A stretch of 64,000 bases of DNA from an uncultured Gammaproteobacteria bacterium. GTDB lineage: Bacteria; Pseudomonadota; Gammaproteobacteria; CAWCPV01. The stretch is from contig CAWCPV010000003.1 in assembly GCA_963797555.1 (NCBI GenBank), forward strand, positions 384,001 through 448,000. The letters are read 5' to 3'. The notes under the pieces are model-generated. The model worked only from the letters and a program-made list of their open reading frames with translations. It did no database searches and had not been told where the DNA came from. The translations under genes and the position numbers were made by a program. This document shows positions 1-35,051 of the stretch, piece by piece; positions within the stretch are counted from its first letter, which is position 1, and every line of letters starts with the position of its first letter.

Positions 1-801
1 TGATCCTGTTCCTGGCGCTGCAGGCGTGGGAATACTTCGGTCCGCAAAAGCCGGACATCAGCCCCGCCAGAAAACGGGTGGCCGACCGGGTGGTCGGCAT
101 GATCGTCGAGGATCTGCGCGACGCGCACGTCACTATCCGCCATGCGGCCCTGCTGCACCTCGCCAACGACCCGTCCGATTATTTCACCGACCGGCTACGG
201 AGTGTCCTCGCTGAGTCCGGGGTGGCAGGTCTGCAGGATCGGACCTTTGGCGAGAAGCTGCGCGGCGTTTCTGCGAATGCAGGAGCCGGCCTATGGAAGT
301 TTGGCCAAGGTGCTCAAGGCGGGACGGCGGCGCGGCGCGGACTATGTCATTTTTGGAGTTATCGACACATTCGAGTCGTCCCGGGAGGGCGCTCGCATCG
401 ATGTGGAGGTGAGCGCGGCGGACGTCGCGAAGGGGGCGGTGGTCTTTGCGCATCGTTATCACGAGAAGCTTTCCCCGGGACTTCTCGCCAGTGTAGCGGT
501 TCAAGATCAGGTGCAGGCGGTCGGCGCGCTGAAGCGGTTTCTGGCCTGGTCGCTGATCGTGCTGCTGCTGCCGGTATTCACCATCGGTTTTATCCGCGGC
601 ATGGTGCGGCGGGAATCGAATGCCGCCAATGCGGTAACCTTGGCGATATACACCGGTGTGGATGCGATACTCGCCTACCTGCTGCTGGTGCGCGGGTTAT
701 CCGCGTGGGGGCCGGTGCTGGCGTGGTTGGGGGCGGTGGGGGCGGCGTCACTATATAACCTGTACGTCATGAGCTTTGCGGTTCGGCTGGAGGCGTCGTG
801 A
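1..801 (+). CDS. Membrane protein, 5'-partial: soluble CsgG/TolB-N-like domain plus about 3 C-terminal TM helices; frameshifted near 270-290
   Basis: ORF 78.. (DRVVGMIVEDLRD...LANDPSDYFTDRLR) continues into ORF 142..801 (GADYVIFGVIDTF...RIDVEV, then hydrophobic helices). Its stop overlaps the next start (GTGA at 798-801). Confidence 0.5.
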
Positions 802-2972
802 GGCGCTATGCCTTGCTGGTGGGGGTCGATGCCTATGCCGATCGGGCCATCCCGCCGCTGCGTTTTGCCGAGCGCGATGCGCAGGCACTGGGAAGGGTGC
901 TCGCCGAGCGGTACGGATTCGAGGTTCGGTGTTTGGTGGGGGAGGAAGCGCGGCGCGAGGCGATCCTGAATGTATTAGGGAGCGGGCGGCTCTCGGAGCA
1001 GGCCGTGCCCATGCAGGCGGGCGATCAGTTTCTGTTCTTCTTCGCCGGGCACGGCGAGCTGGTGGGTAGCAACTATGTCTTGCACCCGTGGAATGCCAAG
1101 GCGGGGGCCCATTATATGTCGATCACCAGGATCGACATCAGCTCTCTGCTGGGCAGCAACGTGCCGTGCGGGGAGTGCATGTGCATTCTAGATGCCTGCC
1201 GCAACCTGGCGCCAGCGGGGGCGCGGGGCGGACAGGCGCTCGATGAACGGTCGGCCCGAGATATCCAGGCCGTGCACCGGGAGGCGCCGCACAAGCTCAT
1301 CAAGGTGCTATACGGTTGCAGCGAGGGCGAGCGGAGCTGGGAGGACGAGCGGCTGGGCCAGGGGGTGCTCAGCTACTATCTGAAGCGGGTGCTGGAGAGT
1401 GCAGAGGTGGCGTCCTTCGAGGAGCTGGCCGAGCGGGCGGCCGATGAGATGCGAAAAAGTTGGCGCCATTGGGAGTTCGAGGGAGCAACCCAGGTGCCGC
1501 ACATATACGGGCCGACCACGGGTCGGCGAATTCGCCTGGAGGTGGCCCGGCGGCGGGTGTGGGTCTCGCCGGGCCTTGCCGAGCAGGGCATGGTGCGGCA
1601 ATTCGGCCGCGGTGTCATCCGGCACGTGCTTCTGCCCACGGAGGACCGCGTGATCGTGGCGGCTGGGGGGTCGGTGGCGCTGTTCGATATGGACACAGGC
1701 GAGGCGCCGTGGGAGATCCAGGGCCGGGTCGGGGGGTGCGCGGTGAGCCCCGACGGTGCGCTGGTGGCGGTGGCCGAGGGTACAGAGGTGCAGCTTTGGC
1801 ATCCGGCCAGTGGCGAGCTGAGGGCACGCCTTCGGGGGCATCCACGCCCCGTGACCAGTGTCACGTTCAGCCCGGACGGGCGGTGGCTCGCCTCGGGCAG
1901 TGACGACGAGACGGTGCGGTTGTGGGAGGTGGCGAGCGGCAAGGAGCTGAAGCGCTTTGAGGGGCACGGTGGCGGGGTGGAGAGTGTCGCCTTCAGCCCC
2001 GACGGCCGGTGGCTCGCCTCGGGCAGTGACGACCGGGCGGTGCGGTTGTGGGAGGTGGCGAGCGGCAAGGAGCTGGAGCGCTTTGAGGGGCACGATGATG
2101 TGGAGCGGAGCGTCGTTCTCAGCCCCGACGGACGGTGGCTCGCCTCGGGCAGTGAGATCGAATACGACGACCGCTACGACGATTGGGCGTCGGTGCCGTT
2201 GTGGGAGGTGGCGAGCGGCGAGGAGCTGAAGCGCTTTGAGGGGTACGGTGGCCGGGTGGAGAGTGTCGCCTTCAGCCCCGACGGCCGGTGGCTCGCCTCG
2301 GGCAGTTGGGACAAGACGGTGCGGCTGTGGGAGGTGGCGAGCGGCGAGGAGCTGAACGGCTTTGTGCACGGTGGCGGGGTGGAGAGTGTCGCCTTCAGTC
2401 CCGACGGCCGGTGGCTCGCCTCGGGCGGTTGGGACGAGACGGTGCGGCTGTGGGAGGTGGCGAGCGGCAAGGAGCTGAAGCGACTTGAGGGGCACGGTGG
2501 CGGGGTGGAGAGTGTCGCCTTCAGCCCCAACGGCCGGTGGCTCGCCTCGGGCAGTGACGACGAGACGGTGCGGTTGTGGGAGGTGGCGAGCGGCAAGGAG
2601 CTGAAGCGCTTTGAGGGGCACGGTGCCGGGGTGCGGAGTGTCGCCTTCAGCCCCGACGGCCGGTGGCTCGCCTCGGGCGGTTGGTTCGGCACGGTGCAGT
2701 TGTGGGAGGTGGCGAGCGGCAAGGACCTGAAGTGGCTTGACGGGCGCGGTGGCCGGGTGGAGAGTGTCGCTTTCAGCCTCGACGGCCGGTGGCTCGCCTC
2801 GGGCAGTTGGGACAAGACGGTGCGGTTGTGGGAGGTGGCGAGCGGCGAGATGCTGAAGCGCTTTGAGGGGCACGGTGCCGGGGTGCGGAGTGTCGCCTTC
2901 AGCCCCGACGGCCGGTGGCTCGCCTCGGGCAGTTTTGACGGCACGGTGCGGCTGTGGGAAGTCAGGGGATAA
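798..2972 (+). CDS. Caspase-like (peptidase C14) domain plus WD40 repeat protein
   Basis: N-terminal RYALLVGVDAY, His motif FFAGHG and Cys motif LDACR; C-terminal nine near-identical WD40 units (GH...SVAFSPDGRWLASG..D.TVRLWEV). Confidence 0.9.
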   Translation: MRRYALLVGVDAYADRAIPPLRFAERDAQALGRVLAERYGFEVRCLVGEEARREAILNVLGSGRLSEQAVPMQAGDQFLFFFAGHGELVGSNYVLHPWNAKAGAHYMSITRIDISSLLGSNVPCGECMCILDACRNLAPAGARGGQALDERSARDIQAVHREAPHKLIKVLYGCSEGERSWEDERLGQGVLSYYLKRVLESAEVASFEELAERAADEMRKSWRHWEFEGATQVPHIYGPTTGRRIRLEVARRRVWVSPGLAEQGMVRQFGRGVIRHVLLPTEDRVIVAAGGSVALFDMDTGEAPWEIQGRVGGCAVSPDGALVAVAEGTEVQLWHPASGELRARLRGHPRPVTSVTFSPDGRWLASGSDDETVRLWEVASGKELKRFEGHGGGVESVAFSPDGRWLASGSDDRAVRLWEVASGKELERFEGHDDVERSVVLSPDGRWLASGSEIEYDDRYDDWASVPLWEVASGEELKRFEGYGGRVESVAFSPDGRWLASGSWDKTVRLWEVASGEELNGFVHGGGVESVAFSPDGRWLASGGWDETVRLWEVASGKELKRLEGHGGGVESVAFSPNGRWLASGSDDETVRLWEVASGKELKRFEGHGAGVRSVAFSPDGRWLASGGWFGTVQLWEVASGKDLKWLDGRGGRVESVAFSLDGRWLASGSWDKTVRLWEVASGEMLKRFEGHGAGVRSVAFSPDGRWLASGSFDGTVRLWEVRG
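1830..2965 (+). repeat. Tandem ~126-bp WD40-coding repeats (9 units, nearly identical at DNA level)
   Basis: Recurrent ttcagccccgacggccggtggctcgcctcgggc...gtgcggttgtgggaggtggcgagcggc; one unit has a 9-aa insertion. Confidence 0.9.
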
Positions 2973-4495
2973 CGGTTCTACCGGTGGGCTTGGGGGTCGC
3001 GCCGAGCCGGGCACACCCGCCGGTTAGATGCTTTCTGGTGTCGTCCCTGCCATGGCCGCTTCGGCTCGCATTTCCGAAACTCACTCGGGACCAACACGGG
3101 CACGCCTGGGATCTGGTACTCGAAGGCGCGTGGGAGATCGTCGAGGGGCAGGTCTTCCTCGAAAATTTCGCTGTTCACCATGTCTTCGCCGAGCAGCCGC
3201 TGCGTAACTCTCTGGTCGAATCCTGGCTGACGGATAGGTTGGGCTACCGGGTGACCGACTTCGTGTCGGACAGCGAACCTCGCCCGACCGTGAGCGACCT
3301 CCAGGACTTGCCGGCAAGGTGGTGGCAAGCCCAGATCAGCAGGTGGCTCGCCGAGTACGGCATATCCGTCGATCTCACGGCCGCGCGCCTCGACAGCGCC
3401 GATGCCGCGCGAGCCGAAGAACAGCGCAGGCACCGTGCGCGCCTCGAGCAGGTGGAGATCGAGCACAAAGTCGAACGGGAAATGGAGCTGCGTCAGCTCG
3501 CCGCCGAGGCGGATTACGAGAACGAAAGAGCGCGTATCGAGCAGAGCGAGCGGGCGAGCGAGAGCGAGCGGGCGAGCGAGAGCGAGCGGCAGCACCAGCT
3601 CAAGTGTCTGGGGTTGCGGCACCAGAAGGAGGCGAAGGAGCTGGAAGTCGAGTTGGAGAAGCTGCGCTTCCAGAGCGAGCGGTCGCAGCTCGAGCACGAG
3701 GTGGCCGTAGCGGAGCTGCGCGCCGACCTGGAAGGCGCTCAACGGGCCGGCCGCAGACAGGAACGGCTGGAAGTGGACCACGCAGCCCTGCTGCACCGGT
3801 TACACCAGGTCCTGAACACGCTCGGCCGTTTCGATGCGCTCTCTCAGCAGCTCGCCAGCGCTAACGTCCGGGAGGCACACCTGGCGGCGGAGTGGCTCAC
3901 CTCTCCTGCATTCGGGTTCAGGCCGGAAGAGCTTCTCGTGTCGGGCGCTCCTTCGGCGGCTCAGAGACTGAAGCAGTGCCTGCGCGATAAGGCGGCGGAG
4001 CAGGAGCACCAAGTCGCGCTGAGCATGGCACAGCTCACCACCCGCGATATCGGGACGGCGGAGGTCAGGGCTCTGCGTATCAACAGCCCCCTCCGCTTCG
4101 AGATCAATTCGGCACGGGCCGGATACGTCACCGTCATCGACATCGGAACGAGCGGAACCGTTTACCTGCAGGTCCCCAACGCATATGTCGGTACAGCACG
4201 GGCGCGGGTATCGGCCGAACGCAGCTACCATATTCCGGGTCCAGAGCTGCTCCCAGGCGATGACCTGCTGGCGCACAGACTCGCTTACCTGGAGATCGGC
4301 CCGCCCGGATGGGAACACCTCGCCGTGGTGGTCAGCGAGCAGCCGCTCGTGCCCGACAGGATTGTCCGGCGCTCCCAGCCGACGAATCCATTCGTCAGCT
4401 TGTCCGCGTCCGAGGTCGACGAAATCCTGAATCGACTGATGGGATGGCCTGCAAGTGGCTGGTCGGCTGGCCTGCTCTCCTTCCTCGTAGAGTAG
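2954..4495 (+). CDS. Band-7/SPFH-like region, coiled coil and C-terminal DUF4384-like domain; start uncertain
   Basis: Central E/R/Q-rich coiled coil. The C-terminus LRFEINSARAGYVTVIDIGTSGTVYLQVPN...YHIPG...GPPGWEHLAVVVS matches the DUF4384 pattern. Confidence 0.6.
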   Translation: MGSQGITVLPVGLGVAPSRAHPPVRCFLVSSLPWPLRLAFPKLTRDQHGHAWDLVLEGAWEIVEGQVFLENFAVHHVFAEQPLRNSLVESWLTDRLGYRVTDFVSDSEPRPTVSDLQDLPARWWQAQISRWLAEYGISVDLTAARLDSADAARAEEQRRHRARLEQVEIEHKVEREMELRQLAAEADYENERARIEQSERASESERASESERQHQLKCLGLRHQKEAKELEVELEKLRFQSERSQLEHEVAVAELRADLEGAQRAGRRQERLEVDHAALLHRLHQVLNTLGRFDALSQQLASANVREAHLAAEWLTSPAFGFRPEELLVSGAPSAAQRLKQCLRDKAAEQEHQVALSMAQLTTRDIGTAEVRALRINSPLRFEINSARAGYVTVIDIGTSGTVYLQVPNAYVGTARARVSAERSYHIPGPELLPGDDLLAHRLAYLEIGPPGWEHLAVVVSEQPLVPDRIVRRSQPTNPFVSLSASEVDEILNRLMGWPASGWSAGLLSFLVE

Positions 4496-4534: not shown

Positions 4535-5727
4535 GTGAGTGCCCCGGAAGTCGTTCACGGACCGACAATGGCGCCAGAGACGCTTACGTTGGCCCAATAT
4601 CAGAGTCTTCGCCGAGTGCACCGACCGCACCCCGGAGCAGAGCCGGCGGAGCCTCGACTTTCCCCTGCTCGGGTTGTTCGGGGAGGTGGGCAGCTTGCTG
4701 AGTGCGCTGAAGAAGAAGCAGCGCGATGCCGACTCTTACATCGGGTATGCCCCGTCGGTGGTCGAGGAGCTCGGTGACGTTCTGTGGTATTTTGCGAGCC
4801 TCGCCACACGCGCTGACATCGCCCTGCCCGAGCTTGCGCGCAATGCAGTGCGGAACTGGAGTATACAGGACGATAAGCCAAGCGCGGTGGTCGTCACGTT
4901 CGACGCCCTCCAACCAGACTTGGCCAACGACGGTCCGAAGCCGCCGGAAGCTTTCAGCGGAGCCTAATGCGGCTCGCCGGCGAGGTGGGCATTCTGATGG
5001 CGGATGTCGCCGCGGGCCGTCTGGCGGACGATCGGGCCGCCTTGTTCGTGCACATGAGCGCGGTCTTCACGTCGCTGGTAGCCGCCGCCAACGACGCGGG
5101 AGTATCCCTGGCGGATGCGGCTCATCGCAATCTGTGCAAGACATTCGATCGCTGGCCGCCCGATAAAACCTATCCGAGTCTTTTTGACGACGGGTTCGAC
5201 CGAGACGAGCAGATCCCGCGCAGGATCGAGGTGCACATTTTCGAAAAGACCGTTGCGGGGGCAACCTACGTCTTCCAAAGATGCAACAACATCAACATCG
5301 GCGAGCGCCTGACGGACAATAAGATCGAACAGGACGACTACCGATTCCACGATGTCTTCCACCTCGCCTATGCGGCGGTGCTGGGCTGGTCCCCGGTCAT
5401 CCGATGCCTGTTCAAATCAAACGCAAGAGCAAGCCAGAGGTCGACGAGGCCGAGGACGGGGCGCGCGCGGCGCTTATCGAAGAGGGTATCTCGACCTGGG
5501 TCTTCAATCACGCCGCCCGGCTGAACTTCTTCGAGAATCTGACGTCGCTGGATTACGGCCTGCTCAAGGCGGTGCACGAATTGGTTGTCGGCTACGAGGC
5601 CGAACGCTGTCCGTTGTGGCTGTGGGAGGAGGCAATCCTGCAAGGCTATGCGGCGTTCAGGGAGCTTCAGAAGTATCGCTGCGGCTTGGTAGTCGCCGAC
5701 CTCCATGGAGAGAACCATTATCTTTGA
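4535..5727 (+). CDS. MazG-like nucleoside triphosphate pyrophosphohydrolase with MazG C-terminal domain; split by about 3 frameshifts
   Basis: TLAQYQ; LGLFGEVGSLLSALKKKQRD...EELGDVLWY; second repeat LAGEVG; C-terminal GERLTDNK..DDYRFHDVFHLAYAAVLGWSP..KRKS.PEVDEAEDGARA. Spread over ORFs 4535, 4539, 4967 and 5404. Confidence 0.8.
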
Positions 5728-5739
5728 GAAAGCACCGGA

Positions 5740-6384
5740 ATGAGAGCTACCGCCTTCATCGACGCGCTGAGCGCGATATCGTTGAAGGCGGTTTTCAATC
5801 CCTACGCCGATCGCTGCGGTGTTCATGACCGCGAGGATGCTCCGGTTCTGCGCCGCTCCAATCTCCGAGTTACCCTCGAAGCCGTCCAGCACATAGATGT
5901 CCGTGCCATGTGGATCGCGCGGGATCTCGGTTACCGTGGCGGTCGCCGCACCGGGCTTCCCTTGACCGACGAGGTACACTTGCCTGCGTTCAGTCAGGCG
6001 TTGGGCGGGGTGCCGTTATCGCGGGCGACGATCGGGCCCCCCGTCGCCGAGCGCACCGCGGGCGTTATTTGGGATACGTCCTCGCTCGGATCCAGCAGCC
6101 GGTTTTTCTGTGGAACGTCTTTCCCTTTCATCCCTTCGAGCCGGGCGACCCCTTATCCAACCGCTGCCACAGCCGTAAAGAGCGGCTCGCCTGCGACCGG
6201 CTGCTGGTCGAATTGCTCAGCATGCTGGCGCCCGAGAACGATCGTCGCAATCGGTAGAGATGCCCGGCTTGCCCTCACCGAACTCGGCGTACCGTGCCGC
6301 TCTGTGCGTCACCCGAGCTATGGCGGGCAAACAGCCTTCGCCAGAGAGATTGGCGAGCTGTACGGACTCAACGCGGCGGCATGA
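5740..6384 (+). CDS. Uracil-DNA glycosylase superfamily protein; frameshifted
   Basis: FNPY, LGYRGGRRTGLPLTDE, ERTAGVIW, WNVFPFHP..SNR (ORF 5910) and VRHPSYGG. Confidence 0.8.
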   Translation: MRATAFIDALSAISLKAVFNPYADRCGVHDREDAPVLRRSNLRVTLEAVQHIDVRAMWIARDLGYRGGRRTGLPLTDEVHLPAFSQALGGVPLSRATIGPPVAERTAGVIWDTSSLGSSSRFFCGTSFPFIPSSRATPYPTAATAVKSGSPATGCWSNCSACWRPRTIVAIGRDARLALTELGVPCRSVRHPSYGGQTAFAREIGELYGLNAAA

Positions 6385-7213
6385 ACCGAAGCCGGCTCTG
6401 GCTTTTGATTAGCCACCGTCGTCTGCTGCCGTGTGCGCTCGCAGGTCCGCAACAGATCCTCGACCTCTGACCGGCGCCACTTTTGCGCCTCAACCTCCGC
6501 ATGTGTCGAGATGATCGTTAGAGCTCCGACCTCGACTCCCGCCTCCAAGCCGACAAAGGCCATGAGGTTGCCCAAGCCGACCAGGTTCCCGAGCAGCCGC
6601 TGGATATAGTAGTGATTGCGGTACAGCGCGGTCAGCGTCAGCCGGTTCTGCGGATCGAGCTTGAAACTGAGAAAACTGAGACACTGCCGATTCATGACGG
6701 GCGACGGAATCCCGCTCCGGGTCGTAGATGCCGATGTCGAGCGCAGGGTCCGAAATCGTCAGTTCATAGACATTGCGAAAGGTCCTTCCCTTCCCTTGGA
6801 CGTGTGCTCGAAGCTTGGCCACTAGGTCGGCCAAGGGATTGATGACTCGACCGTCGGCCGTCCGACGCCGGATCATGCGCTCGAAGTACCGCCCCCAGTC
6901 ACGCAGTCGCCCGCCTGACACGCGGGTAAACCGTCTCCAGATACACGTCGTAAAAGCTCGGGGCTCCATGCCGCTGGTAGAGCTGGTTCGGGAAGATGGT
7001 GTTGGCTACCGAGGCCAGCGGGTAAGCGCCGTGATGCCGCAAGAAATCGTCGAGCTGGTCAGCGAGCTGGTTGTCGGTCGCGGACCAATCCAGCGGGCTC
7101 TCCACGTCGACGATAACGTTATGAGCCTCGTGTCCCGGATTGGCGTCCACCGCCCGAACGGCAGCCAACCACGCCGAGGCGGCACTGTTATGAGGTTCGA
7201 CGGCCAGGTACAT
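6318..7213 (-). CDS. Thymidylate-synthase-fold protein, atypical; split over 3 ORFs by frameshifts
   Basis: VANTIFP; WGRYFERM; QCLSFLSFK (catalytic Cys position), LTLTALYRNHYY..RLLGNLVGL and GALTIISTHA align with the TS C-terminal motifs. ORFs 6899-7213, 6490-6969 and 6318-6695. Confidence 0.65.
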
Positions 7214-7865
7214 GTGTCAGGTCCTCGGTCAGCTCGATGGCCTCCAGTAAACGGGGTTCAAGATAGCACTCGTTAATCCAGGCATGTCCCTCGATACCCC
7301 AGCCCGTACCCCAGCTATTGCGGGCAAGGACAAGGCGATCTCCTCCGCGCATACCGTAGCCGACACCCACCAGCGCGTGCCGTCGAGTCGGGTCCACGGG
7401 CTCGTCGGCAGCAACGACACCATCTCCGTCCGGCAGGTAGAAGGCACCCGACAGATTCATCGCGACGACCACTGGGGTCCCTCGGTCCAAGCACTGAAGG
7501 ATGTCCTCCACGCGAAGGGACGCGCGCTGGCCCGCACGGCGGAAAAGCGGCCCAACCTTGTCCGGGGGATGCCAGTCGCCCAGATTGACCGGCAGCACCG
7601 CCAGGTATGGCCACGCGGCTTCATGCGGCTGACCATCATGGCGCAGGGTCGCAACCATTCCCTCCACCGTGGAGCCCGCATGCGGATTCCCACCACACCG
7701 GCGTACTGCGTGGTAGTACGCATACTCGCAGCAGAGCGGTTCCCAGCCCGGGCGCAACGCGGCATGCGCATCGCTCGCGGCAAAGGCGAGACAAGTCGGG
7801 CGGAGACCCTGGTCGCGGACCGGACCGAACAGAGGCCGCAGGTCGCACACGACCTCGAGGAGCAT
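7188..7865 (-). CDS. Papain-like (C1) cysteine protease
   Basis: DLRPLFGPVRDQGLRPTCLAFA (oxyanion Gln, catalytic Cys), HALVGVGY and RNSWGTGWG. Own ATG at 7865, although it reads in frame with the upstream gene in this assembly. Confidence 0.85.
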   Translation of the reverse strand: MLLEVVCDLRPLFGPVRDQGLRPTCLAFAASDAHAALRPGWEPLCCEYAYYHAVRRCGGNPHAGSTVEGMVATLRHDGQPHEAAWPYLAVLPVNLGDWHPPDKVGPLFRRAGQRASLRVEDILQCLDRGTPVVVAMNLSGAFYLPDGDGVVAADEPVDPTRRHALVGVGYGMRGGDRLVLARNSWGTGWGIEGHAWINECYLEPRLLEAIELTEDLTHVPGRRTS

Positions 7866-8876
7866 CAGGCTGCCTCGCGCGGTAAGCCGCCGCTCTGCTT
7901 GCGACAAGCCTTCCTCCTCCGGCCCGGTAAGATCGTAATCCACGTTGAAGGCCATCAGCGCCTTGTCGCGGGGGAGCCACGGCCGCCGCTCGGCCAGAAC
8001 CAAGTGCCCGCTCTGGCGCATCCTCGAGCGCGCGGTAATCCGCCGTGTCACATGAGCACCCACCGTGCTCTCGCCTGGCCCCTCGCGCTCGTCGCGAACT
8101 ATAGCGAAGCCCGTCTCGTCCAGCTCTTCAAAGCTCCAAAGATAGCCAGAGCCGCTATGCTCACTGAGCTGGAGCACGAACAGGTCAGAGCGGCTGCCTT
8201 GTAGAAGCGCGCCTTCATCGCGCTCGGTAAGCAGCCACACGTCTACCCACCAGCTCGGCGGAACGTATCCGCGAAGCAGATCCTTCTTGATCTCCCGAGG
8301 CTGCACGTCCAGAAGTGGCCGGAGAGTCTGTCGCCTGATGATGCCGTGCCGCAGTAGCGTCCAACAGGTTGCCTCGTAGCTCGCGCCAACGCGCAGCGCG
8401 AGCTGATAAACATTGCGGGGGTTCTCCATAGACCGGGGCGTCCAGCCCTGGCGTCTGAAGTGCGCCGCGAAGAGCCACTTGGGTAGCAAAAACTCGGCCG
8501 CGAAGGCATCCGCCTCCAGCTCCTGCTGCTCGTAATCCGGCCGTGCCGAAAAAAGCGATCTGCGCAAGATCGTGTCGTCATCGAGGCTAGGGCGGTGACC
8601 CAGTCGAGCATGGCCCAGTTCGTGCGCCCCCGTGAAGCGCTGTACGCTCAGCGGCCGTTGCGTCGTGACGAGAATCCCCGGGATAGGCTCCGAGAGATAC
8701 ACGCCGAGCAGCCCATCCATGGGCTTGAAGAGCAAGGGGATGCCCATGTGCACGATGGCGTCGAAGACATCGATCCGGCCCCCTTCCGCCTCGATGCGCA
8801 CCCGCATGTCGAACTGGCGATGTAGCCGCGCCGCCTCACGTGTGCCGCGCAGAATGCCAGTGCGTGCGTCAGCCAT
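7866..8876 (-). CDS. ImmA/IrrE-family Zn metallopeptidase with C-terminal chagasin (I42)-like domain
   Basis: RFTGAHELGH and E.EADAFAAEFLLP. The C-terminal LSEHSGSGYLW...VGA...ERRPW resembles the chagasin loops NPTTGYxW and RPW. Confidence 0.8.
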
Positions 8877-9264
8877 CTCCTGCTTGCTCCGCCTGTGCCC
8901 GGGCCCGCAGGTAGTCGGCAAAGCGGCTTAGCTCCTGGCGGTCCCGATCCGACAAGCCGGCTGCGGCTCTCGCCAGATGCGCAATGTCCTCTGGGAGGCC
9001 CGATTCAACCGGCGCCTCGCCCGTGAAGTAACCCACGGGCCGCTTATACAGCTCTGCAAGCCGCTTCAGCTCCAGAGCATCCACGCGCCGCTGGCCGGTC
9101 TCGATATTCGAGAGAGCTGAACGTGGGATCCCGAGACAGCGTGCAACTTCTTCCTGGGATAGACCAAGATAGTCCCGGGCATCGCGCAGGCGCGCCCCAA
9201 GCTGCTCCCGAGTCTGGATCTCAACGTTCGCAAAACCGACAGATTGGTCACTGTTTGCGCTCAT
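8869..9264 (-). CDS. XRE-family helix-turn-helix regulator
   Basis: LGARLRDARDYLGLSQEEVARCLGIPRSALSNIETGQRRV; overlaps the peptidase start. Confidence 0.9.
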   Translation of the reverse strand: MSANSDQSVGFANVEIQTREQLGARLRDARDYLGLSQEEVARCLGIPRSALSNIETGQRRVDALELKRLAELYKRPVGYFTGEAPVESGLPEDIAHLARAAAGLSDRDRQELSRFADYLRARAQAEQAGDG

Positions 9265-9589
9265 AGGCTGACTCCCCGTGGTGTACGCTCCACTCGCGCT
9301 CTAACTTTGGCGCCAAATCGCTCACGAGCTCGTCCACGCTCCCGTAACCTCCGGGCTGTACGAGGCTCAAAGGCAGCTCAAACGACAGCTTGGACTCCAA
9401 CTGCACCAAGAGCTCTACTATCACTAAAGAGTCGATGCTCGGCTCAAAGCCCATACGGGCCGACCCGCCGCCACCGAGAGCCATCTCGGCACTCGCCATG
9501 TCCGCCAGGAAAGTTCGGATGCACGCATCGACCTCCTCCGCCGGAAAGGCGGGGGCGGTCGCGGGCGTCTGTAGTGCAGTGGTTACCAT
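9248..9589 (-). CDS. Acyl-carrier-protein-like protein
   Basis: 113 aa, acidic, with IDSLVIVELLVQLE (phosphopantetheine-attachment DSL motif) and SVDELV. Confidence 0.65.
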   Translation of the reverse strand: MVTTALQTPATAPAFPAEEVDACIRTFLADMASAEMALGGGGSARMGFEPSIDSLVIVELLVQLESKLSFELPLSLVQPGGYGSVDELVSDLAPKLEREWSVHHGESAYERKQ

Positions 9590-9613
9590 AGAAGCACCAC
9601 GTTAGTTCGAATA

Positions 9614-9650
9614 TCAGACAAATGATAGCCGATTATGTCTGAAAAACAAA
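9614..9650 (-). promoter_or_regulatory. Candidate promoter and operator for the ACP-HTH-peptidase operon
   Basis: AT-rich patch with inverted repeat TCAGACA(9614-9620)-N15-TGTCTGA(9636-9642), bracketing a minus-strand TATCAT -10-like hexamer. Confidence 0.4.
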
Positions 9651-9900
9651 CTCTCCATGGACAGAACGCGAGCTTGATGCTGGACGAAAGGCAGCGGAAG
9701 CCAGGGAGCGCGCAGGGATCGGTGCAGTGCGTGAACGATGTGGAATCTCGGGCTTCCGGTGCGGCACGATGCCCTCGGATCCCTGGACAGCACTGTGTTG
9801 CATCCGGGCTACGATGTGGGGGTCACCCGCTGAGTCCCGGATTGAGAGCTGGACACGGACGCGCTCGGTGGCATACAGCGCGGGGGGGCGGAGTGTCGCT

Positions 9901-11070
9901 CTAGTCGCGCCGCAGCCGGTCGGACACCGCTATGGGCGTGGGATATTTCAGAACGATCCAATAAGCGGACGCAATGAAAGTGAGGAGCGTGGCGAGCTGG
10001 ATGAGGTGTGCCACCGGCTTGTCGATGACGCCGCTGTCGGCTGCCATGTATCCGATGAGGAGGGAAAACTCGCTCGCCTGCCCCAGGCGCACCCCGATCT
10101 CCCAGGGTAGACCGGGTGCCTCTTCGAACCGGCGCAGCAGGGCGCTGAACGTCACCGGCTTGACCACCAACAGAACCGAGGCCAGCGCAGCGCCGGGCAG
10201 AATCACCTCGCGGACCGCGGCGACCTCGAAGCTTCCACCGAGGGATACGAAGAACAGCACAAGAAAAAAATCGCGCAGCGGCTTGAGACTCTCGGCAATG
10301 AACAGCGAGAGCGGCGTGGTGGCGATGGCAACGCCGGCGATGAACGAGCCGATTTCGGGGGAGAGCCCAACGGCGCTCGCCAGCTCCGCCATTCCCAGGC
10401 ACCAGCCGATGGACAGGAGAAACAGGTACTCGTGGAACCGGTCGAAGCGCGCGAACAATCGCACGAGGACATAGCGCTGAGCGACAAAGGCAAATACGAC
10501 CAAGAGTGGAAGCAGCAGGAAACGGGCCACGGCCGGCGCCGCCTCGATGGGCGGGCGACCGAGACCCTGCAGGACCAGCAAGACCACAATGGCCAGCAAG
10601 TCCTGTAGCAGCAGGATGCTGATGATCACTCCACCCGCACGCCGATGGTGCAGCACGGTGGTGGGCAGGAGTTTGACCCCCAGGATAGTGCTCGAGAACA
10701 TCATCGCCGTGCCGACCACGAGCGAGTCACGCAGGCCGAACCCGAAGGAGATGGTGAAGAGTGCGGCCACGCCCCCGAAGATGAAGGCGCTGCAGAGTGT
10801 CGTGACGGTGGCCTCGCGCAGCATCTCCGCGAGGCGCTGGGGGTGCAGGTTCAGACCCAGCAGGAAGAGCAGAAAGATGATGCCCACGTGGGCAAGCTGG
10901 TCGATCAGTTCAGGGCTGCTCAGTACCCCCGCTCCGGACGGACCGAGCAGCATGCCGACGAGGATATAGGCGACCAGCAGTGCCTGGCGCGCATACAGCG
11001 CCGCTGTGGCGAGGGTTGCAGCGCCTGCAAAGACCACAAACAGGTTGAATATCAGTGGATCGCCAGTCAC
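9901..11070 (-). CDS. Cation:proton antiporter (CPA2/Kef-like)
   Basis: Multi-TM protein with GIIFLLFLLGL, MFSSTI, ILLLQD and LGQASEFSL. Confidence 0.9.
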   Translation of the reverse strand: MTGDPLIFNLFVVFAGAATLATAALYARQALLVAYILVGMLLGPSGAGVLSSPELIDQLAHVGIIFLLFLLGLNLHPQRLAEMLREATVTTLCSAFIFGGVAALFTISFGFGLRDSLVVGTAMMFSSTILGVKLLPTTVLHHRRAGGVIISILLLQDLLAIVVLLVLQGLGRPPIEAAPAVARFLLLPLLVVFAFVAQRYVLVRLFARFDRFHEYLFLLSIGWCLGMAELASAVGLSPEIGSFIAGVAIATTPLSLFIAESLKPLRDFFLVLFFVSLGGSFEVAAVREVILPGAALASVLLVVKPVTFSALLRRFEEAPGLPWEIGVRLGQASEFSLLIGYMAADSGVIDKPVAHLIQLATLLTFIASAYWIVLKYPTPIAVSDRLRRD

Positions 11071-12209: not shown

Positions 12210-12411
12210 CCCTCCTCATCGATCTCAGCGGGCAGGGTCCGCCGCGGCCATTCCCACGCCATCGGACCGGGCGAAGCCAGCAAAGTTTCCCCGCAACCGC
12301 CAGCCCGGCCGCCCGGGGGCGGTCCAGTATGCGGGCTCGGGAGTGAGGGCGCAGCCGTGTCGAGTGTTACCATCAGCGACCTTCCCAGCTCGCCCCCAGG
12401 AGCACTGAGCG

Positions 12412-13408
12412 ATGAGCCCAGACCAAGACCTTGCACCTTACCGCAATTTGGGGCCGGACAACATCCTGGACGCTGTGGAAGCCACCGGCCTGCGCTGGAA
12501 TGGCCGGCTGCTCCCACTGAACAGCTATGAGAACCGCGTCTACCAGGTCGGCATCGAAGGAAGCCAACCCATCGTGGTGAAATTCTACCGGCCGGAGCGA
12601 TGGTCCGACGAGGCCATTCTGGAGGAGCATCGCTTCACCCTCGAGCTGGCCGAGCAGGAAATCCCGGCCGTGCCGCCCCTACCGGATGACCAGGGAAACA
12701 CGCTGCGGCGACACGGACCATTTCGGTTCGCGGTGTACCCGCGGCGCGGAGGACACCCGCCCGAGCTGGACAATCCCGACCACTTGGAGCAGCTCGGCCG
12801 CTTCCTGGCCCGCATCCACAACGTGGGCGCGGTGCACCCATTCCTCCACAGGCCCACCCTGGAGATCCAGCACTTCGGAGTGGAATCGTATCGTTACCTG
12901 CTGCAGGAGCGGATCATCCCGGATGATCTCAGCCCCGGCCTACAGCAGTCTGGCCGAGCATCTCATCGAGCGCGTCCGGGACTGCTACGCCCGGGCGGGC
13001 AACGTCCAGTATCTGCGGCTGCACGGTGACTGCCACCCGGGCAACATCCTGTGGACCGAGCAAGGCCCCCATGTCGTGGACTTCGATGACGCCCGTATGG
13101 GGCCCGCAGTCCAGGACCTGTGGATGTTGCTGTCGGGCGAGCGTCCATACATGACCGCACGGCTCGCCGATCTGCTGGAGGGATACACGATGTTCCGTGC
13201 GTTCGACGCGCGCGAGCTAAATCTGATCGAGGCCTTGCGGACCCTGCGCATGATGCACTACGCGGCCTGGATCGCCAGGCGCTGGGAGGACCCCGCGTTT
13301 CCTCGCGCCTTCCCATGGTTCGGCAGTTCCCGATACTGGGAGGACCACATCCTCTCCCTGCGGGAGCAGGCAGCGCTCATGGACGAGCCGCCTCTTTACT
13401 GGGACTGA
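12412..13408 (+). CDS. srkA: Stress response Ser/Thr kinase SrkA/RdoA (YihE); frameshift near 12935
   Basis: LNSYENRVYQ, KFYRPERWS, RLHGDCHPGNILW and DFDDARMGPAVQDLWM across ORFs 12412 and 12686. Confidence 0.9.
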
Positions 13409-23606: not shown

Positions 23607-23891
23607 CAATGCAATGGGGTCAGACACCGTTACCTCGTATTCCGGCGCCGTGAGACTGGCTTCGTTCGAACGGAGAGCAAAGCCAGAAGCTTCTGCCGTG
23701 CCGTCTCCCTCGGTTGCGTCCTCGGCCGCCCCTGCCAGCCTTTCCAGGTACCGGCGGCAAAGGGAGTAATCACCATTGTGCCTCCGGAAAGCCGCTTGCA
23801 GCGGGTGCCTTTCTAGTGTCCAATGGCCGGGCGCTGACGTGAAGGATCTCGGGGCGGCGGATCACGGCCGCCATAGGGAGGGAGACAATCC

Positions 23892-26448
23892 ATGGCCGAA
23901 GTGCCCACCAAGCGCCTCAAGCTCGAGGACACGCGCTACCTGTCGCCGCCGCTCGTCGGCGAACCGCTCTACCAGTGCGCGCAAGCCGTCGTGGTCTACG
24001 GCTTCGACGTCGGCGCAACCCTAGACCTCGAGCGCAACGGCGCCATCGTGCTGGCCGGCGTTCCGGGCGGATTTCCGCAGCCGCAGGGCGCCCTCCTGAC
24101 GTTGCCGGCGCCGCTCGTGGCCGGCGATGTCATCCGGGCGCGCCAGAAAGCCAACGGCATGACTAGCGGCTGGTCGCCAGCAGTGACCGTCCGCGATCAC
24201 AGCCAGGAGTATCCCGATGGACCGCCGCGGCCGCAGATCGACCCAGCGCCGGTCTACCAGTGCGGCTCGCGCACCGGCGTGGACAACCTGCTGACGGGCT
24301 GCGACGTGTGGGTCACGGCGGACGCGGTCGAGGTCGGCAAGGTCAAGGGTGCCGCGCCGCACCAGGGCGTCAACGTCGACGCCGGACTATGGGCTGGGCC
24401 AGGAGGTCCGCGCCTGGGCGAGCATGTGCGACGACGCCAGCCCGCCATCGATCGCCTACGACACCATCGCCCCGCCCAATCCTCTGCCGACGCCGGGGAT
24501 CGACCCCGCCTACGAGGGCACCCAGCAGATCCGCATCACCAATCTCGTGAACGGCGCACGCTTCGAGCTGTCGCTGAACGGCAGCTCGCTCGGCGTCTGG
24601 CGAACCTGGGGTTATGCCCATCTGGTCGGTCTTTCGTCGCCGCTCAACACCGGCGACACGCTATCGGTCGTGCAGCGGATGTGCCCCGGCAATCCGTCCA
24701 GCAATCCGGGCGGTACCACGGTCCTGCCGTGCTCGGCGCTGCCGGCCCCGCAAGTTGCGCCGATCCAGTGCGGCGACACGGCAGTCACCATCACTCAAAT
24801 GGCGAGCGGCGCCACGATCAAGGTCTACGTCAACCACGTGAAGGCCGGCGAAGGCGGCGGTCCCGGCGTGCTGCTCAATCACGCGATTCAGCACGGCGAC
24901 GTCGTCAGACGTCGTTCAAACGCTCGGCAAGTGCGTCAGCCAGTTCGCACAAGAACTCACCTGCCTGTGCGTCGCGCCTCACGTGACCTTCGACCCGTCG
25001 GCCCTCGACCTCTTTCCGGTGGGCTTCGCCGATTACGACGGCGGGTCGGTCAGCGTCGGCGGGCAGACGCTGGACGTCCGCGGCACCGTTTACTATCCGG
25101 CGGAAGACGACGGCGCGAGCCAGCCATTCAACGAGCGGCGCGGCAAGCGCGGCCCCGTCCCGCTGATCTTCATGGCGCACGGCAATCATTGCCCCGCAAC
25201 GGTCCCGAGCCACCTTGGCTACGACTACTTCCAGCAAGCGCTTGCGAAAATGGGGTTCGTCGCGGTGTCCGTCGATTGCAACGAGTTGAACTGCTCGGCC
25301 TCGGGTCCGGGCAACATCGTCGACCGCGCCGACCTCATCAACGCGTCGATCGCGCACTTCCAGTCACTCAACGCGGGCGACCCGATATTCAAGGGCCACC
25401 TGGATTTCCTGAAGGTCGGGCTCATGGGACACTCGCGCGGCGGCGAGGCCGTGGTGATTGCGCCCATTCGCGCGAGCAAGCCGGCCGGCGTGGCGATTCT
25501 CTGCGTGCTGTCGCTCGCTCCGACCGACTGGGGCGCGACCAGCGGTCCGCCCACGGACTACGAATTCCTCACGCTGTTGCCCGCCGCGGACGGCGACGTG
25601 TGGAGCAACGACGGCGCGAAGTATTACGACCGCTGCCTGCCGCCCTCGTTCAAGTCGCAGCTCTATGTCCACAATGCATGCCACAACTATTTCAACCGGC
25701 AGTGGCTGAACAACGACAACGGAGGAACGTTGCCGACCATGGCGCGCTCCGACCACGAGCGGGTGCTGCTCGCTTACGGTTGCGCGTTCTTCCGCCGCGT
25801 GCTGGCAGGCCACGACACGGCCGGGATTCCTGGTCGGCAGCGAGTTGCCGCCCGCGACGCCGACCTCGCTCGTCCACCTGGCCTTCAAGTGGACGAAGGC
25901 GACGACGGTGGACGATCATCAGCAGAACAACACGATCGCCAAGAATTCACTCAACGAACCGACGGCCCAGACCGGCCTCACGGCCGACGAGTTCGGGATG
26001 AGCCAGACCGCGGCCAACCAGTTCAACGGCTCCTTCTTCGGCGACTCGATCGGCATGGTCGCGGTGCCCAAGAAGGCCAACGGCACATTTCGCTCGCAAC
26101 TCAAGCCCAAGACGAATCTCGCCGCCAAGGAGATCTGGATTCGTGTTGCGGATGTGTTCACGGGAGCTTTTCCGTCGGCTGCCACAGGATTCGAACTTGG
26201 GCTGGAATTGGCCAATGGATCGGTCAAGTGGGTGGACTCGGAGGACATTGGCGGTGTGCCGTTGCCGTTTGACTACGGCAGTACGACCAAGAGCATGTTG
26301 TCGACGCTGCGCTTTCCGGTCCGATGTTTCCATCTCGTCGAAAAGCGATAGCGCAATCCGCGCCATTCTGTTGCGCCTCAATCGTACGAAGGCGAGAGCG
26401 CTGGCGTTCGACGACCTGCAAATCGTCTGGGCGCGGAGATCGACATGA
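23892..26448 (+). CDS. Large protein: Cys/Pro-rich Ig-like repeats plus alpha/beta hydrolase; several frameshifts
   Basis: Repeated P.Y.C...V.V..GA modules; GTVYYP, FMAHGNH, SHLGYDY, nucleophile GHSRGGE, DGDV and HNYFN across ORFs 23892, 24349, 24983, 25845 and 26143. Confidence 0.7.
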
Positions 26449-32764: not shown

Positions 32765-33529
32765 TCAGCTCTTGTTCGATACCTCCTGGTTGCGGGTTGC
32801 TTGGCGCTTTCGGTAGCTCTGCCCGTTGAGCTCGATGATGTGGGCATGGTGGACGAGCCGGTCGATGGCGGCGACGGCCATCATGTTGTCGGGGAAGATC
32901 GCATCCCACTCGCTGAAGGGGTGGTTGCTGGTGATCAGGAGACTGCCGCTCTCGTAGCGGTGGGCGATGAGCTCGAAGAGCACGGAGCTTTCCATCTCGG
33001 TGCGCTTGACGTAGCCGATGTCATCGAGGACGAGCAGCGGGTACTTGTCGAGCTTGGCGAGCGCATCGCTGAGCCTGAGGGCCTGTTTGGCGGTTTGAAG
33101 CTCCTGGACGAGGCTGGTTGCCGAGGCGAAACGCACCCGCACCCCTTGGCTGATGAGCCCGTGCCCAATGGCTGCGGCGAGATGGGTTTTGCCGACGCCG
33201 GAGGGCCCGAAGAGCAGGAGGTTGTCGGTGCGCTCGACCCAGGTGGCATCCTCGGCGAGCTGCACGATCTGCTGGCGGTTCAGCCCGGCGCTGGCCGTGA
33301 AGTCGAAGTGCTGGAGCGTCTTGCCCGCGGGCAGGCGGGCATCGTTGAGGTGGCGCTCCAGGCGCCGCCGCTCGCGTTCGGCGAGCTCGTGCTCGCAGAG
33401 CGCGGCGAGATAGTCGGCGAGGCTCCAGTGGTGCTCGAGGGCCCGGGTTTGCAGCGGTTGATACAGCCGTGCCATGGTCGGCAGGCGCAGCTCCCTGAGC
33501 AGCAGGGGCAAGGTGGCGGCGTTAGCCAT
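32765..33529 (-). CDS. istB: IS21 helper ATPase IstB
   Basis: LRELRLPTM, GPSGVGKTHLA, LLVLDDIGY, ITSN and AAIDRLVHH. Confidence 0.95.
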   Translation of the reverse strand: MANAATLPLLLRELRLPTMARLYQPLQTRALEHHWSLADYLAALCEHELAERERRRLERHLNDARLPAGKTLQHFDFTASAGLNRQQIVQLAEDATWVERTDNLLLFGPSGVGKTHLAAAIGHGLISQGVRVRFASATSLVQELQTAKQALRLSDALAKLDKYPLLVLDDIGYVKRTEMESSVLFELIAHRYESGSLLITSNHPFSEWDAIFPDNMMAVAAIDRLVHHAHIIELNGQSYRKRQATRNQEVSNKS

Positions 33530-35051
33530 GGCACACCTCCTCGGCGGCACTGCGGTGGGTGGCGGGCAGGAGCGCGTCATAGTCGGCCAGCGGGTGCTGA
33601 GCAGTGGCGCCGAGAGGGAGCGTCGCGGGGGCTGGCGGTGCGAAGCGTTGTTGCAGGGCGCTGAGCGTGGGCGATAGGCCTCGCTCCAGGGCGGCCAGCC
33701 AGTGGGTCCCCAGGGCCTCCTGGCACTCGTGCTCGGCGGCGAGCTTGAGTGCGCCGACCATGCGCTTGCAGGCGTCGGCGGGCGCAAGGGTAGCGTCCAG
33801 ATGCTGCCAGATACGCTGATAGGTGGCATCCGGAAGCAGGGCGTCGCGGTACTGGAGCCGATAGAAGGCGCGGGGCTTCTTCACCAGCCATCCCACGAGA
33901 TGGCGATAGTCGATGCGGCTCGCCCGGCGCTTGCCCGGGGCCGGGTAGACCCGCGGGAGGATGAGCAGGGCCTCGGTGCCGAGGAACAGCTCCAGGCGGG
34001 CGTCATAGAGGTGCACCCGCAGGCGCTCGCCGATGAGCCGCGCGGGGACCGAGTAGACCACCAAGCGCACGGTGATGGTGCTGGCGGTGGTGACCTTCAC
34101 CCACAGCTCGGTGTAGTCGGCCGCGAAGGTCACCGGCAGGGGCCGCAGATGGGGGCGCTCGGCCTCGATGGCGGTGGCGTTACGCCGGTTGACGGCGGCG
34201 GTGACGGTGTCGAGAAAGTCCTGGTAGGACGCCACCGAGGGGAACTCGGCACTGCCCCGGGCCAGAAGGCGCTGCACGATACGGCGCTTCAAATGCCCGT
34301 GGGGTGACTCGATGCTGCCGTTCTCGTGGCAGGCCCCGGGGTTGTTGCGCGTCGGCCTCATCCCATAATGGGCGCAGAGCGCCGCGTAGCGCGCCGCAAG
34401 GTCGTGCTGGGCCTCAGCCGAGAGGTTCTTGAACGCCGCCGAGAGGCTGTCAGTGCGGTGCTCGGCCGGTGCACCGCCCAGGCGCAGCAGCGCCTGGCTG
34501 AGCCCCTCGGCGAGCGCCGTGAAGCTCTCCCCGCCCAGCACCACCCGCACCGTGCACCAGCCGCTGTAGGCCAGGCGGAAATGGTAGAGGCGGTGGGCGA
34601 GCGGCTCGCCGGCGATGGTGACGGTGACGTCCTTGAGCACGGTGAAATCCGACAAACCCCGCAGTCCCGGGACCTGCTGCTGTGGGAACATCACCTCCTT
34701 CTCGGGTCCATGCGCCGCCCGCCAGGCCTTCACCCGGCGCTGCAAGGTGCGCAATAGCTTGTCCGGGTACTGGCCCGGATGGCGCTCCTGGAGCCCTTCC
34801 AAGAGCGTCAGCGCGTGCAGTGCCGGGGTGTGCTCAAGCAGTGGGACCAGCTCGCTGTCCCACACGGTGTCAAAGGGGTCGCGGCGCGTTCGATACCGCC
34901 GCGCGCCCCGCGGTGCTCGACGCTCGTCCCGCTCGTCAAGACGGCGCGCCGTGCGCTCCGAGAAACCCGCCTTGGCGGCGGCGGTTACTTGGTTCTTACC
35001 TGCGGTTCTCTGTGACATATAGACCTTGACCTGTTGCGGTGTGACGGCCAT
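33522..35051 (-). CDS. istA: IS21 transposase IstA
   Basis: RTRRDPF, LRTLQRR, SDFT, HRTDSLSAA, ENGSIESPHGHLK and YSVPARLIG. Confidence 0.95.
   Translation of the reverse strand: MAVTPQQVKVYMSQRTAGKNQVTAAAKAGFSERTARRLDERDERRAPRGARRYRTRRDPFDTVWDSELVPLLEHTPALHALTLLEGLQERHPGQYPDKLLRTLQRRVKAWRAAHGPEKEVMFPQQQVPGLRGLSDFTVLKDVTVTIAGEPLAHRLYHFRLAYSGWCTVRVVLGGESFTALAEGLSQALLRLGGAPAEHRTDSLSAAFKNLSAEAQHDLAARYAALCAHYGMRPTRNNPGACHENGSIESPHGHLKRRIVQRLLARGSAEFPSVASYQDFLDTVTAAVNRRNATAIEAERPHLRPLPVTFAADYTELWVKVTTASTITVRLVVYSVPARLIGERLRVHLYDARLELFLGTEALLILPRVYPAPGKRRASRIDYRHLVGWLVKKPRAFYRLQYRDALLPDATYQRIWQHLDATLAPADACKRMVGALKLAAEHECQEALGTHWLAALERGLSPTLSALQQRFAPPAPATLPLGATAQHPLADYDALLPATHRSAAEEVCHG

Follow-up and report, generated by a model that had tools for sequence, protein, structure and literature searches.

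A chagasin-type inhibitor domain on an ImmA-like metallopeptidase and its papain-type neighbour: a possible two-protease switch in a mobile island

Pairs of a repressor and a metallopeptidase, such as CapH with CapP, DdrO with IrrE and ImmR with ImmA, occur in mobile or defence-type DNA, with the gene for an XRE-family helix-turn-helix (HTH) repressor overlapping a downstream gene for an HExxH peptidase of the M78 family. Three-part toxin-antitoxin (TA)-like modules that contain an XRE protein and a COG2856 (M78) protein also exist. Here we describe a locus of similar layout in a stretch of 64,000 nucleotides (nt) of contig CAWCPV010000003.1 from an uncultured Gammaproteobacteria bacterium, to which, at its full length, we refer as the window. 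On its minus strand, a single open reading frame (ORF) of 562 amino acids (aa) at 7188-8876 is, by its sequence, an M78 metallopeptidase followed by a chagasin (I42) domain and a complete C1 (papain-family) cysteine peptidase; we call the first two parts ImmA-I42 and the third C1. The best explanation of this arrangement, one that we hold to be moderately probable, is that ImmA-I42 keeps C1 silent in a mobile operon switched by the XRE repressor, and that C1 is released or out-titrated on induction.

In those portions of the CapP and IrrE literature on which our comparison draws, both proteins consist of a peptidase domain, an HTH-like linker and, at the C-terminus, a GAF domain, the last of which aids the binding of single-stranded DNA (ssDNA) and of the repressor (10.1101/2022.04.27.489752; 10.64898/2026.05.16.725639). 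The same portions describe how ssDNA activates CapP by entering the groove between peptidase and GAF domain and displacing a cysteine-switch loop with two conserved acidic residues (10.1101/2022.04.27.489752; 10.64898/2026.05.16.725639), and how the C-terminal domain forms half of this groove and docks the HTH domain of the repressor (10.64898/2026.05.16.725639). The window protein departs from this three-domain build, as its C-terminal domain is I42 and not GAF; the switch-loop cysteine of CapP is absent, and that region holds an invariant histidine and an Asp-Asp pair instead. With I42 in place of GAF, the M78 peptidase is therefore to be seen as CapP-like in its working, not as an orthologue of CapP or IrrE. 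A C1 gene always follows: in a scan for relatives, restricted to one genome per species, 362 loci encode a relative, and among the best 80, which were fetched, ImmA-I42 is followed directly by C1 in 79 of the 79 that are usable (the contig of the 80th ends early).

With chagasin, ICP and amoebiasin, all members of I42, the domain of the window shares an immunoglobulin-like (Ig-like) fold, an RPW loop, the G-Y-x-W of loop L2 and a predicted three-loop wedge. According to the sections of the I42 literature used here, known members of the family are small stand-alone proteins, mostly secreted or from parasites, that act on host or lysosomal enzymes (PMC2607524). In the present case, by contrast, the inhibitor is the last domain of a signalling metallopeptidase in the cytoplasm, is paired with a bacterial C1 enzyme of its own, and reads HSGxG, not NPTTG, in L2. 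The locus also resembles type II TA modules, in that the gene for the neutraliser precedes that for the potentially harmful enzyme, stop and start codons overlap and a repressor forms part of the operon. A bare three-gene copy exists in one related locus (L052), and gene order, coupling and predicted binding all fit such a module. The difference is that the putative toxin would be a papain-type protease and the putative antitoxin a classical protease-inhibitor domain.

The surroundings of the cassette recall the DefensePredictor paper, parts of which report an E. coli defence system that has been validated and comprises a thymidylate synthase together with a 5-hydroxymethyluracil kinase, along with systems of MazG, MazG-C, UDG and HTH genes that are predicted and unvalidated. 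Around our cassette, too, there are an enzyme with the thymidylate synthase (TS) fold, MazG with MazG_C, and a UDG-like or HMUDK_hel gene. The text of the passages compared from that paper contains no mention of ImmA, M78, chagasin or a cysteine protease. Our literature search, judged by title and abstract, found no paper linking chagasin or I42 with ImmA, M78 or MazG. The families of the parts are known and the genes carry RefSeq names; what appears to be undescribed in the literature searched is an inhibitor domain on a signalling protease that would control a second protease within a nucleotide-modification island.

The inhibitor tail and its predicted protease partner

The ORF runs on the minus strand from the ATG at 8876 to the stop codon at 7188-7190 in one frame. 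Pfam detects in it Peptidase_M78 at residues 47-172 (47.2 bits against a cut-off of 22, 2.3e-12), Inhibitor_I42 (PF09394) at residues 231-303 (29.0 bits against 27.2) and Peptidase_C1, with its best stretch at residues 455-535 (35.0 bits against 20.7). Residues 1-208 (8253..8876, minus strand) make up the ImmA/IrrE/CapP-like zinc metallopeptidase with a helical linker, its HELGH motif starting at residue 85 (nt 8610-8624), and residues 209-320 (7917..8252, minus strand) the chagasin-type domain, with EHSGSGYLW at residue 239 (8136-8162), VGAH at 272 (8052-8063) and RRPW at 297 (7977-7988). Beyond the C-terminal end of ImmA-I42, C1 covers 225 aa from M338 (7188..7865, minus strand), with the catalytic set Q356, C362 (nt 7791-7793), H500 (7377-7379) and N520 (7317-7319). 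An earlier note on this DNA had described an ImmA protein with the tail motifs EHSGSGYLW, VGA and ERRPW, followed by a gene for a C1 protease with an intact Q/C/H/N set and no signal peptide. All of the tail motifs are present in the translated frame, as are C1 and its Q/C/H/N set, and the missing signal peptide agrees with the alignment to mature C1 enzymes and with inspection of the N-terminus; the separate gene does not hold for the window, where ImmA-I42 and C1 form a single frame.

By sequence and predicted fold, the C-terminal tail of ImmA belongs to the chagasin (I42) family. The orthologue in the related locus L007 also exceeds the PF09394 cut-off (28.7 bits against 27.2), and a profile of 46 tails searched against the PDB matches amoebiasin-2 at an E-value of 1.3e-10 and amoebiasin-1 at 2e-4, with a weak match to ICP and one to chagasin at 0.19. 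In the AlphaFold2 model (pLDDT 84.8, pTM 0.74), the tail forms a sandwich of eight strands and then a C-terminal helix of low confidence. When this model was compared with the PDB by Foldseek, ranks 1-13 were all I42 inhibitors (EhICP2, chagasin, amebosin, PbICP-C and P. aeruginosa ICP), with a best E-value of 3.8e-10 and TM-scores by target of 0.78-0.85 for the nine best crystal chains and 0.48-0.70 for ranks 10-13. Thus, the chagasin-like character that had been proposed for the tail is borne out by the Pfam score above cut-off, by the profile match to amoebiasin-2 and by the 13 best PDB folds, and the predicted structure does have the Ig-like chagasin fold.

The loops of the tail follow those of the family in part. 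As given in the sections cited above, I42 inhibitors carry NPTTG in L2, a hydrophobic pair and then GXGG in L4, and RPW/F in L6 (PMC2607524). Among the 46 tails, E239, G244, Y245, W247, G273 and W300 never vary. L6 is represented by RRPW at 297-300, where R and P are at least 90% conserved beside the invariant W300. L2 reads E-H/N-S-G-x-G-Y, which retains G-Y alone from NPTTG-Y and is aligned by HMMER to the NPSTGY of amoebiasin-2, and the family consensus of L4 is x-V/I-G-G around the invariant G273, with TVGAH in the window, where the second glycine is replaced by alanine.

C1 has the features of an intact enzyme of its family. Its Q, C, H and N residues and the Trp that follows are invariant in 46 of 46 sequences, and its family profile matches 158 C1 enzymes in the PDB at E<=0.001, the best being Blo t 1 at 8.9e-17. 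The oxyanion-hole Gln comes 18 residues after the start of the C1 part, and profile position 13 aligns to mature residues 12-15 of cathepsins; C1 thus begins at the mature N-terminus, which leaves no space for a signal peptide or a prodomain. The N-terminal inhibitory propeptide of zymogens, which is typical of the C1 family though not universal in it, is absent from the window C1, and almost all representatives of the clade (best 150 clusters) are about 205-243 aa long. A cytoplasmic papain-type enzyme that lacks a prodomain of its own needs some other restraint.

Such a restraint is suggested by the predicted complex between the tail alone and C1, each modelled with an alignment of 46 sequences in three runs and with three controls. 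The interface score ipSAE was 0.90, 0.90 and 0.89 in the three runs and 0.00 in the best control; contacts agree between the runs to at least 96%, with a pLDDT of at least 77 for the partner. The mark used for this score is passed by 116 of 157 solved complexes and by 2 of 215 mismatched pairs, and is approximate for custom alignments such as these. On the side of the tail, the modelled interface consists of residues 38-44 (L2), 68-74 (L4) and 96-99 (L6), and on the side of C1, of residues 19-26, 62-68, 143-145, 160-164, 185 and 188-190, which form the cleft with Q19, C25, H163 and W185. The complex of tail and protease that the earlier note had envisaged therefore appears in the model with its three loops in the catalytic cleft. 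On these predictions, we consider it very likely that the tail binds and inhibits C1.

The regulator half of the cassette resembles CapH/CapP. The XRE-family HTH repressor (131 aa, CapH/ImmR/DdrO-like) is encoded at 8869..9264 on the minus strand, with Pfam matches to HTH_31 (8.7e-14) and HTH_3 (9.8e-13); its gene overlaps the start of ImmA in the window, and an XRE gene lies upstream in 80 of 80 loci. The L007 orthologue of the repressor matches PADLOC capH at 1.2e-15, and the ImmA part of the window protein matches PADLOC capP at 3.6e-14. In the M78 domain, all 20 sequences compared agree in the zinc-site residues H85, E86, H89 and E119, and also in H94, S97, L98 and D99 of the loop after HExxH, where D100 follows and no cysteine is found. 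The match of the M78 part to CapP (7t5t) in a PDB profile search is weak (E 0.007). Membership in the NCBIfam antitoxin family spr1629 was rejected, with 22.9 bits against a cut-off of 335. PF10463 appears beside M78 and I42 in the precomputed Pfam lists of many 338-aa relatives (P0007-P0112); when we ran Pfam on the window protein at E-values up to 1 and on L007 at up to 0.01, it was not listed.

The junction between ImmA-I42 and C1

Separate genes for ImmA-I42 and C1 are ruled out in the window, where zero stop codons stand between the I42 tail and C1. The end of ImmA-I42 and the junction occupy 7866..7916 on the minus strand, and we compared this DNA with 78 related junctions. The start ATG of C1 (M338, nt 7865) is in frame with the tail, and the Shine-Dalgarno sequence and ATG of C1 are intact. 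In the relatives, ImmA-I42 ends in ...GPEEEGLSRAERRxLLEAA-stop, and the Shine-Dalgarno sequence of C1 lies in its last codons (CTGGAGGCCGCC). At this place the window has ...AERRLTARGSL and continues into C1; its +1 frame reads ...LPREAA-TGA-TG, the normal gene end of the relatives, and therefore a frame change no more than about 35 nt before nt 7865 made the read-through.

In all 79 usable loci, ImmA-I42 and C1 are in separate frames or separated by a stop codon, the offset from ImmA-I42 to C1 being 2 in 59 loci, 0 in 12 and 1 in 8. The start of C1 overlaps the stop of ImmA-I42 by 1 or 4 nt in 51 of the 78 junctions, and the two are 0-6 nt apart in another 25. The remaining two (L002 and L050) are anomalous; in L050 (2633-7055), the ImmA gene is interrupted by about 3 kb of inserted DNA shortly before I42, and the I42 part and C1 are still adjacent and open.

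Other genes of the window are broken as well. As the GC3 (third-codon-position GC) frame plot was too noisy in this region, we mapped the breaks by split Pfam domains and tblastn frames. Pfam finds the MazG_C domain and an APH kinase domain each split across two frames, tblastn finds the TS-like and MazG genes each spread over three, with breaks at about 6547-6698 and 6903-6911 in the former and about 4922-4964 and 5413-5467 in the latter, and a FadB-like gene and a response regulator appear N-terminally truncated, while several long housekeeping genes, those for MetK, AdoHcyase, transketolase, thiolase and GcvP, are whole. The APH/SrkA-like kinase gene (12409-13405, plus strand), broken at about 12.9 kb, lies outside the island. 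Frame breaks are denser in the island than elsewhere in the window, a pattern that fits assembly indels or decay. The homopolymer context of the break points offered nothing decisive. Further along, at 23877-26351 (plus strand), four overlapping same-strand frames with coding-like GC3 and no Pfam match may be a gene with frame breaks.

Given the other frame breaks nearby and the separate genes of the relatives, the join of the window is probably an indel error of the assembly or recent decay, and not native. The single frame might instead be real, either as a natural fusion that gives a self-inhibited two-protease polypeptide or as part of an island decaying into pseudogenes. Natural fusions of ImmA-I42 and C1 do exist, to judge from database sequences, but are rare: three of the 120 best protein matches are fused (P0005 with 536 aa, P0014 with 508 aa and P0031 with 471 aa), and the concentration of breaks within an island whose TS-like and MazG genes are each in three frames, with housekeeping genes whole elsewhere, points the same way. 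However, fused forms number 0 among the 79 related loci, and in the C1 clade, none of the 150 best representatives of clusters measures 450-650 aa. The closest database protein (P0003, 98% identity) diverges at the same junction point into the third frame and is not fused in frame. Breaks also occur outside the island, in the APH kinase-like gene and probably in the FadB-like gene and the response regulator, as fits an indel-prone assembly, and the ribosome-binding site and start codon of C1 have been preserved. Hence, we regard a real 562-aa frame as rather unlikely.

The operon, its neighbours and its mobile context

The cassette forms part of a larger conserved operon in the order ACP-like gene, XRE repressor, ImmA-I42, C1 and TS-like gene, with MazG/MazG_C and a UDG-like or 5-hydroxymethyldeoxyuridine (5-hmdU)-kinase-like gene usually convergent to it. 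The first gene, of 113 aa (9248..9589, minus strand; 5263-5613 in L007), overlaps the XRE start and contains an 'IDSL' motif like that of acyl carrier proteins (ACP). By tblastn, 78 of 82 loci carry it immediately upstream of XRE; it has an Atlas value of 0.95 to 'acyl carrier protein family' clusters, and Pfam PP-binding reaches 17.9 bits, below its cut-off of 20.8; its likeness to ACP may serve as a lead only. On a Haloarcula plasmid, a gene for a 4'-phosphopantetheinyl transferase lies two genes upstream of the ACP-like gene.

At the other end of the operon, the TS-like gene (6411..7213, minus strand, three frames in the window) encodes a divergent thymidylate-synthase/pyrimidine-hydroxymethylase fold. 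Its orthologues are present in 74 of 80 loci, where C1 is the neighbour and often overlaps with them. The Atlas gives 0.97-0.98 to 'thymidylate synthase' clusters, and Foldseek matches the AlphaFold2 model (pLDDT 91.3) to TS and the CMP hydroxymethylase MilA, with E-values down to 2.8e-9 and TM-scores of about 0.5-0.58; Pfam has no match for this protein. Of the genes that face the operon, the UDG-superfamily-like gene (5740..6384, plus strand) is found by tblastn in a single frame (query 1-210), and its L007 orthologue scores 22.3 bits with Pfam UDG, below the cut-off of 24.3. The gene for MazG with MazG_C (4539..5727, plus strand) extends over three frames, MazG_C being split into profile positions 3-91 and 83-180; it is present in 67 of 80 loci and intact in L007 (402 aa, MazG_C 2.8e-83). 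The UDG-like gene occurs in 51 of 80 loci and the HMUDK_hel 5-hmdU-kinase-like gene in 20, never together. In the variant that has no UDG-like gene (L021 9739-10764 and 10854-11564; L081 1224-2858), a 5-hmdU-DNA-kinase-like gene (HMUDK_hel, 359 bits) and one like dCTP deaminase follow. The archaeal plasmid carries genes nearby for a 'nucleotide kinase domain' protein and a dTMP kinase.

Upstream of the operon, 15-65 nt before its first gene, lies an AT-rich imperfect palindrome (9604..9652) with arms of 17 nt that are 76% complementary and a core of TCAGACA...TGTCTGA, a candidate operator and promoter for the XRE repressor. The core recurs just upstream of the first gene in 3 of 82 loci, and shuffling leads one to expect 2.35 loci with it anywhere, so we treat this element as a weak lead. 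A scan of 6200-9950 for sigma-70-like promoters gave 0 sites. The island is adjoined by genes for a WD40-repeat protein (759-2972, plus strand; nine repeats, 384.8 bits) and a DUF4384 protein (2954-4495, plus strand), and an antisense ORF over the WD40 gene (1308-3014) is a shadow of its repeats. Elsewhere in the window, an IS21-type element (32765-35129, minus strand) encodes an IstB-like ATPase (241 bits) and a protein with an integrase core and Mu-transposase-C domain.

The relatives of the cassette are found in mobile DNA of several kinds. No match was present among 50,697 phage records; 18 plasmids match, 12 of them conjugative, and both Burkholderia and the archaeon Haloarcula have plasmids that keep the order HTH, ImmA, C1 and hypothetical protein. 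A prophage immunity module was considered and rejected, given the zero matches to phage records and the plasmid contexts, together with those typical of integrative and conjugative elements (ICEs), found instead. The flanks were inspected for 16 of the 80 loci, and contain mobile-element genes for type IV coupling protein, integrases, serine recombinases, ArdC and IS110, as well as defence-type genes for an OLD-like ATPase with UvrD, SIR2 with a STAND NTPase, AbiJ, Mrr with a caspase-domain protein, and a DNA methylase. RefSeq names the proteins 'ImmA/IrrE family metallo-endopeptidase' or 'protease inhibitor I42 family protein' and 'C1 family peptidase', and PADLOC matches the regulator pair alone, having no models for C1 or for the TS-like, MazG and UDG-like genes. 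In L052 (5547-7658), a bare set of XRE, ImmA-I42 and C1 lies among genes for a major facilitator superfamily (MFS) transporter, a hydrolase and a short-chain dehydrogenase/reductase (SDR), with no ACP-like, TS-like or MazG gene. The three genes can therefore persist as a unit.

How the two proteases may be coupled

We propose the following course of events, in which inhibition within the cell, the triggering signal, the release of C1 and its target are inferred. At rest, the XRE protein would repress the operon, and the little C1 that is made would be held by the I42 tail. A signal of stress or infection, such as ssDNA, would activate the metallopeptidase, by analogy with the described pairs, so that XRE is cut and the operon induced. 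The I42 tail would bind the prodomain-less cytoplasmic C1, which is translated next from the overlapping start, and its three conserved loops would wedge in the catalytic cleft, in keeping with an order of genes in which the antitoxin precedes the toxin. C1 could then escape by release, by cleavage of its keeper or through stoichiometry, and free C1 would act as a second proteolytic output, either as an effector or by activating the nucleotide-modifying enzymes encoded nearby. Since the pair lies within the larger operon of ACP-like and TS-like genes, facing MazG/MazG_C and a UDG-like or 5-hmdU-kinase-like gene, the second protease may serve a nucleotide- or DNA-modification, defence-like system rather than act as a simple toxin. 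That the release of C1 depends on a trigger, as the earlier note proposed, is a tentative suggestion that we are inclined to doubt.

Several points weigh against this explanation. L2 is HSGxGY and not NPTTG, and the L4 of the window is VGAH and not GXGG. Complexes of chagasin with C1 enzymes have been solved (2oul, 2nqd), and the score of the modelled complex may therefore partly reflect likeness to them rather than the pair itself. Without the GAF half of the groove known from the portions of the CapP literature cited above, ssDNA sensing cannot be assumed, and a tight inhibitor of the I42 type might never let C1 go. That TS-like, MazG and ACP-like genes are almost always nearby suggests that C1 has a dedicated task in processing rather than the part of a toxin. 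The label of defence, finally, rests on the context of the flanks and on a paper that, in the parts used here, gives the MazG/MazG-C/UDG/HTH systems as predictions.

The alternatives differ in the role that they assign to C1. It could be the regulator: I42 would replace GAF, occupancy by C1 would gate the metallopeptidase, and once C1 is removed, inactivated or engaged by a phage factor, ImmA would cleave XRE, so that C1 would serve as a guard or co-sensor. The place of I42 is consistent with this idea, as it stands where CapP, in the accounts drawn on here, has the domain that builds the ssDNA groove and docks the HTH domain, and is itself predicted to hold C1; in addition, the invariant H94 and the D99-D100 pair sit at the place of the cysteine-switch loop of CapP with its paired acidic residues. 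The catalytic residues of C1, however, are invariant throughout the 46 sequences, which favours real proteolysis over pure docking and leaves a purely regulatory C1 quite improbable to us. We give as little credence to C1 as a dedicated processing enzyme of the island, one that would mature or degrade the TS-like, ACP-like or MazG proteins, with I42 as a trans-acting prodomain or chaperone and no TA logic. C1 does lie between ImmA-I42 and the TS-like gene wherever the latter was found (74/80), often overlapping it, and survives in the archaeal plasmid; it also starts at the mature N-terminus with no propeptide, in a clade whose representatives have about 205-243 aa. Yet L052 retains XRE, ImmA-I42 and C1 when every supposed substrate is gone, and the TS-like model shows no evident cleavage site or extension.

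A combination of these ideas is a reciprocal latch of two proteases, in which C1 at the position of GAF would shut the metallopeptidase and the loops of I42 would shut C1. A cue from phage or DNA damage would free both; repression by XRE would be lifted, and C1 would activate, or itself be, the effector arm of a so far undescribed mobile antiphage system made of the ACP-like, TS-like, MazG/MazG_C and UDG-like or 5-hmdU-kinase-like proteins. We consider such a latch unlikely, and prefer the explanation in which ImmA-I42 holds C1 silent.

Parasites and pathogens are known to use inhibitors of the chagasin type as weapons or as safety catches, and pairs of M78 and XRE proteins are known as stress-activated switches of transcription in phages, ICEs and defence operons. 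Here, both are joined and tied to a cytoplasmic papain-type protease that lacks a prodomain, in hundreds of species of bacteria and on at least one plasmid from an archaeon. The pair consists of two small soluble proteins and can be tested directly. If I42 does control C1, the logic of protease and inhibitor would be new to bacterial regulatory or toxin-antitoxin modules, and would provide a handle on a widespread nucleotide-modification island whose function has so far been a prediction.

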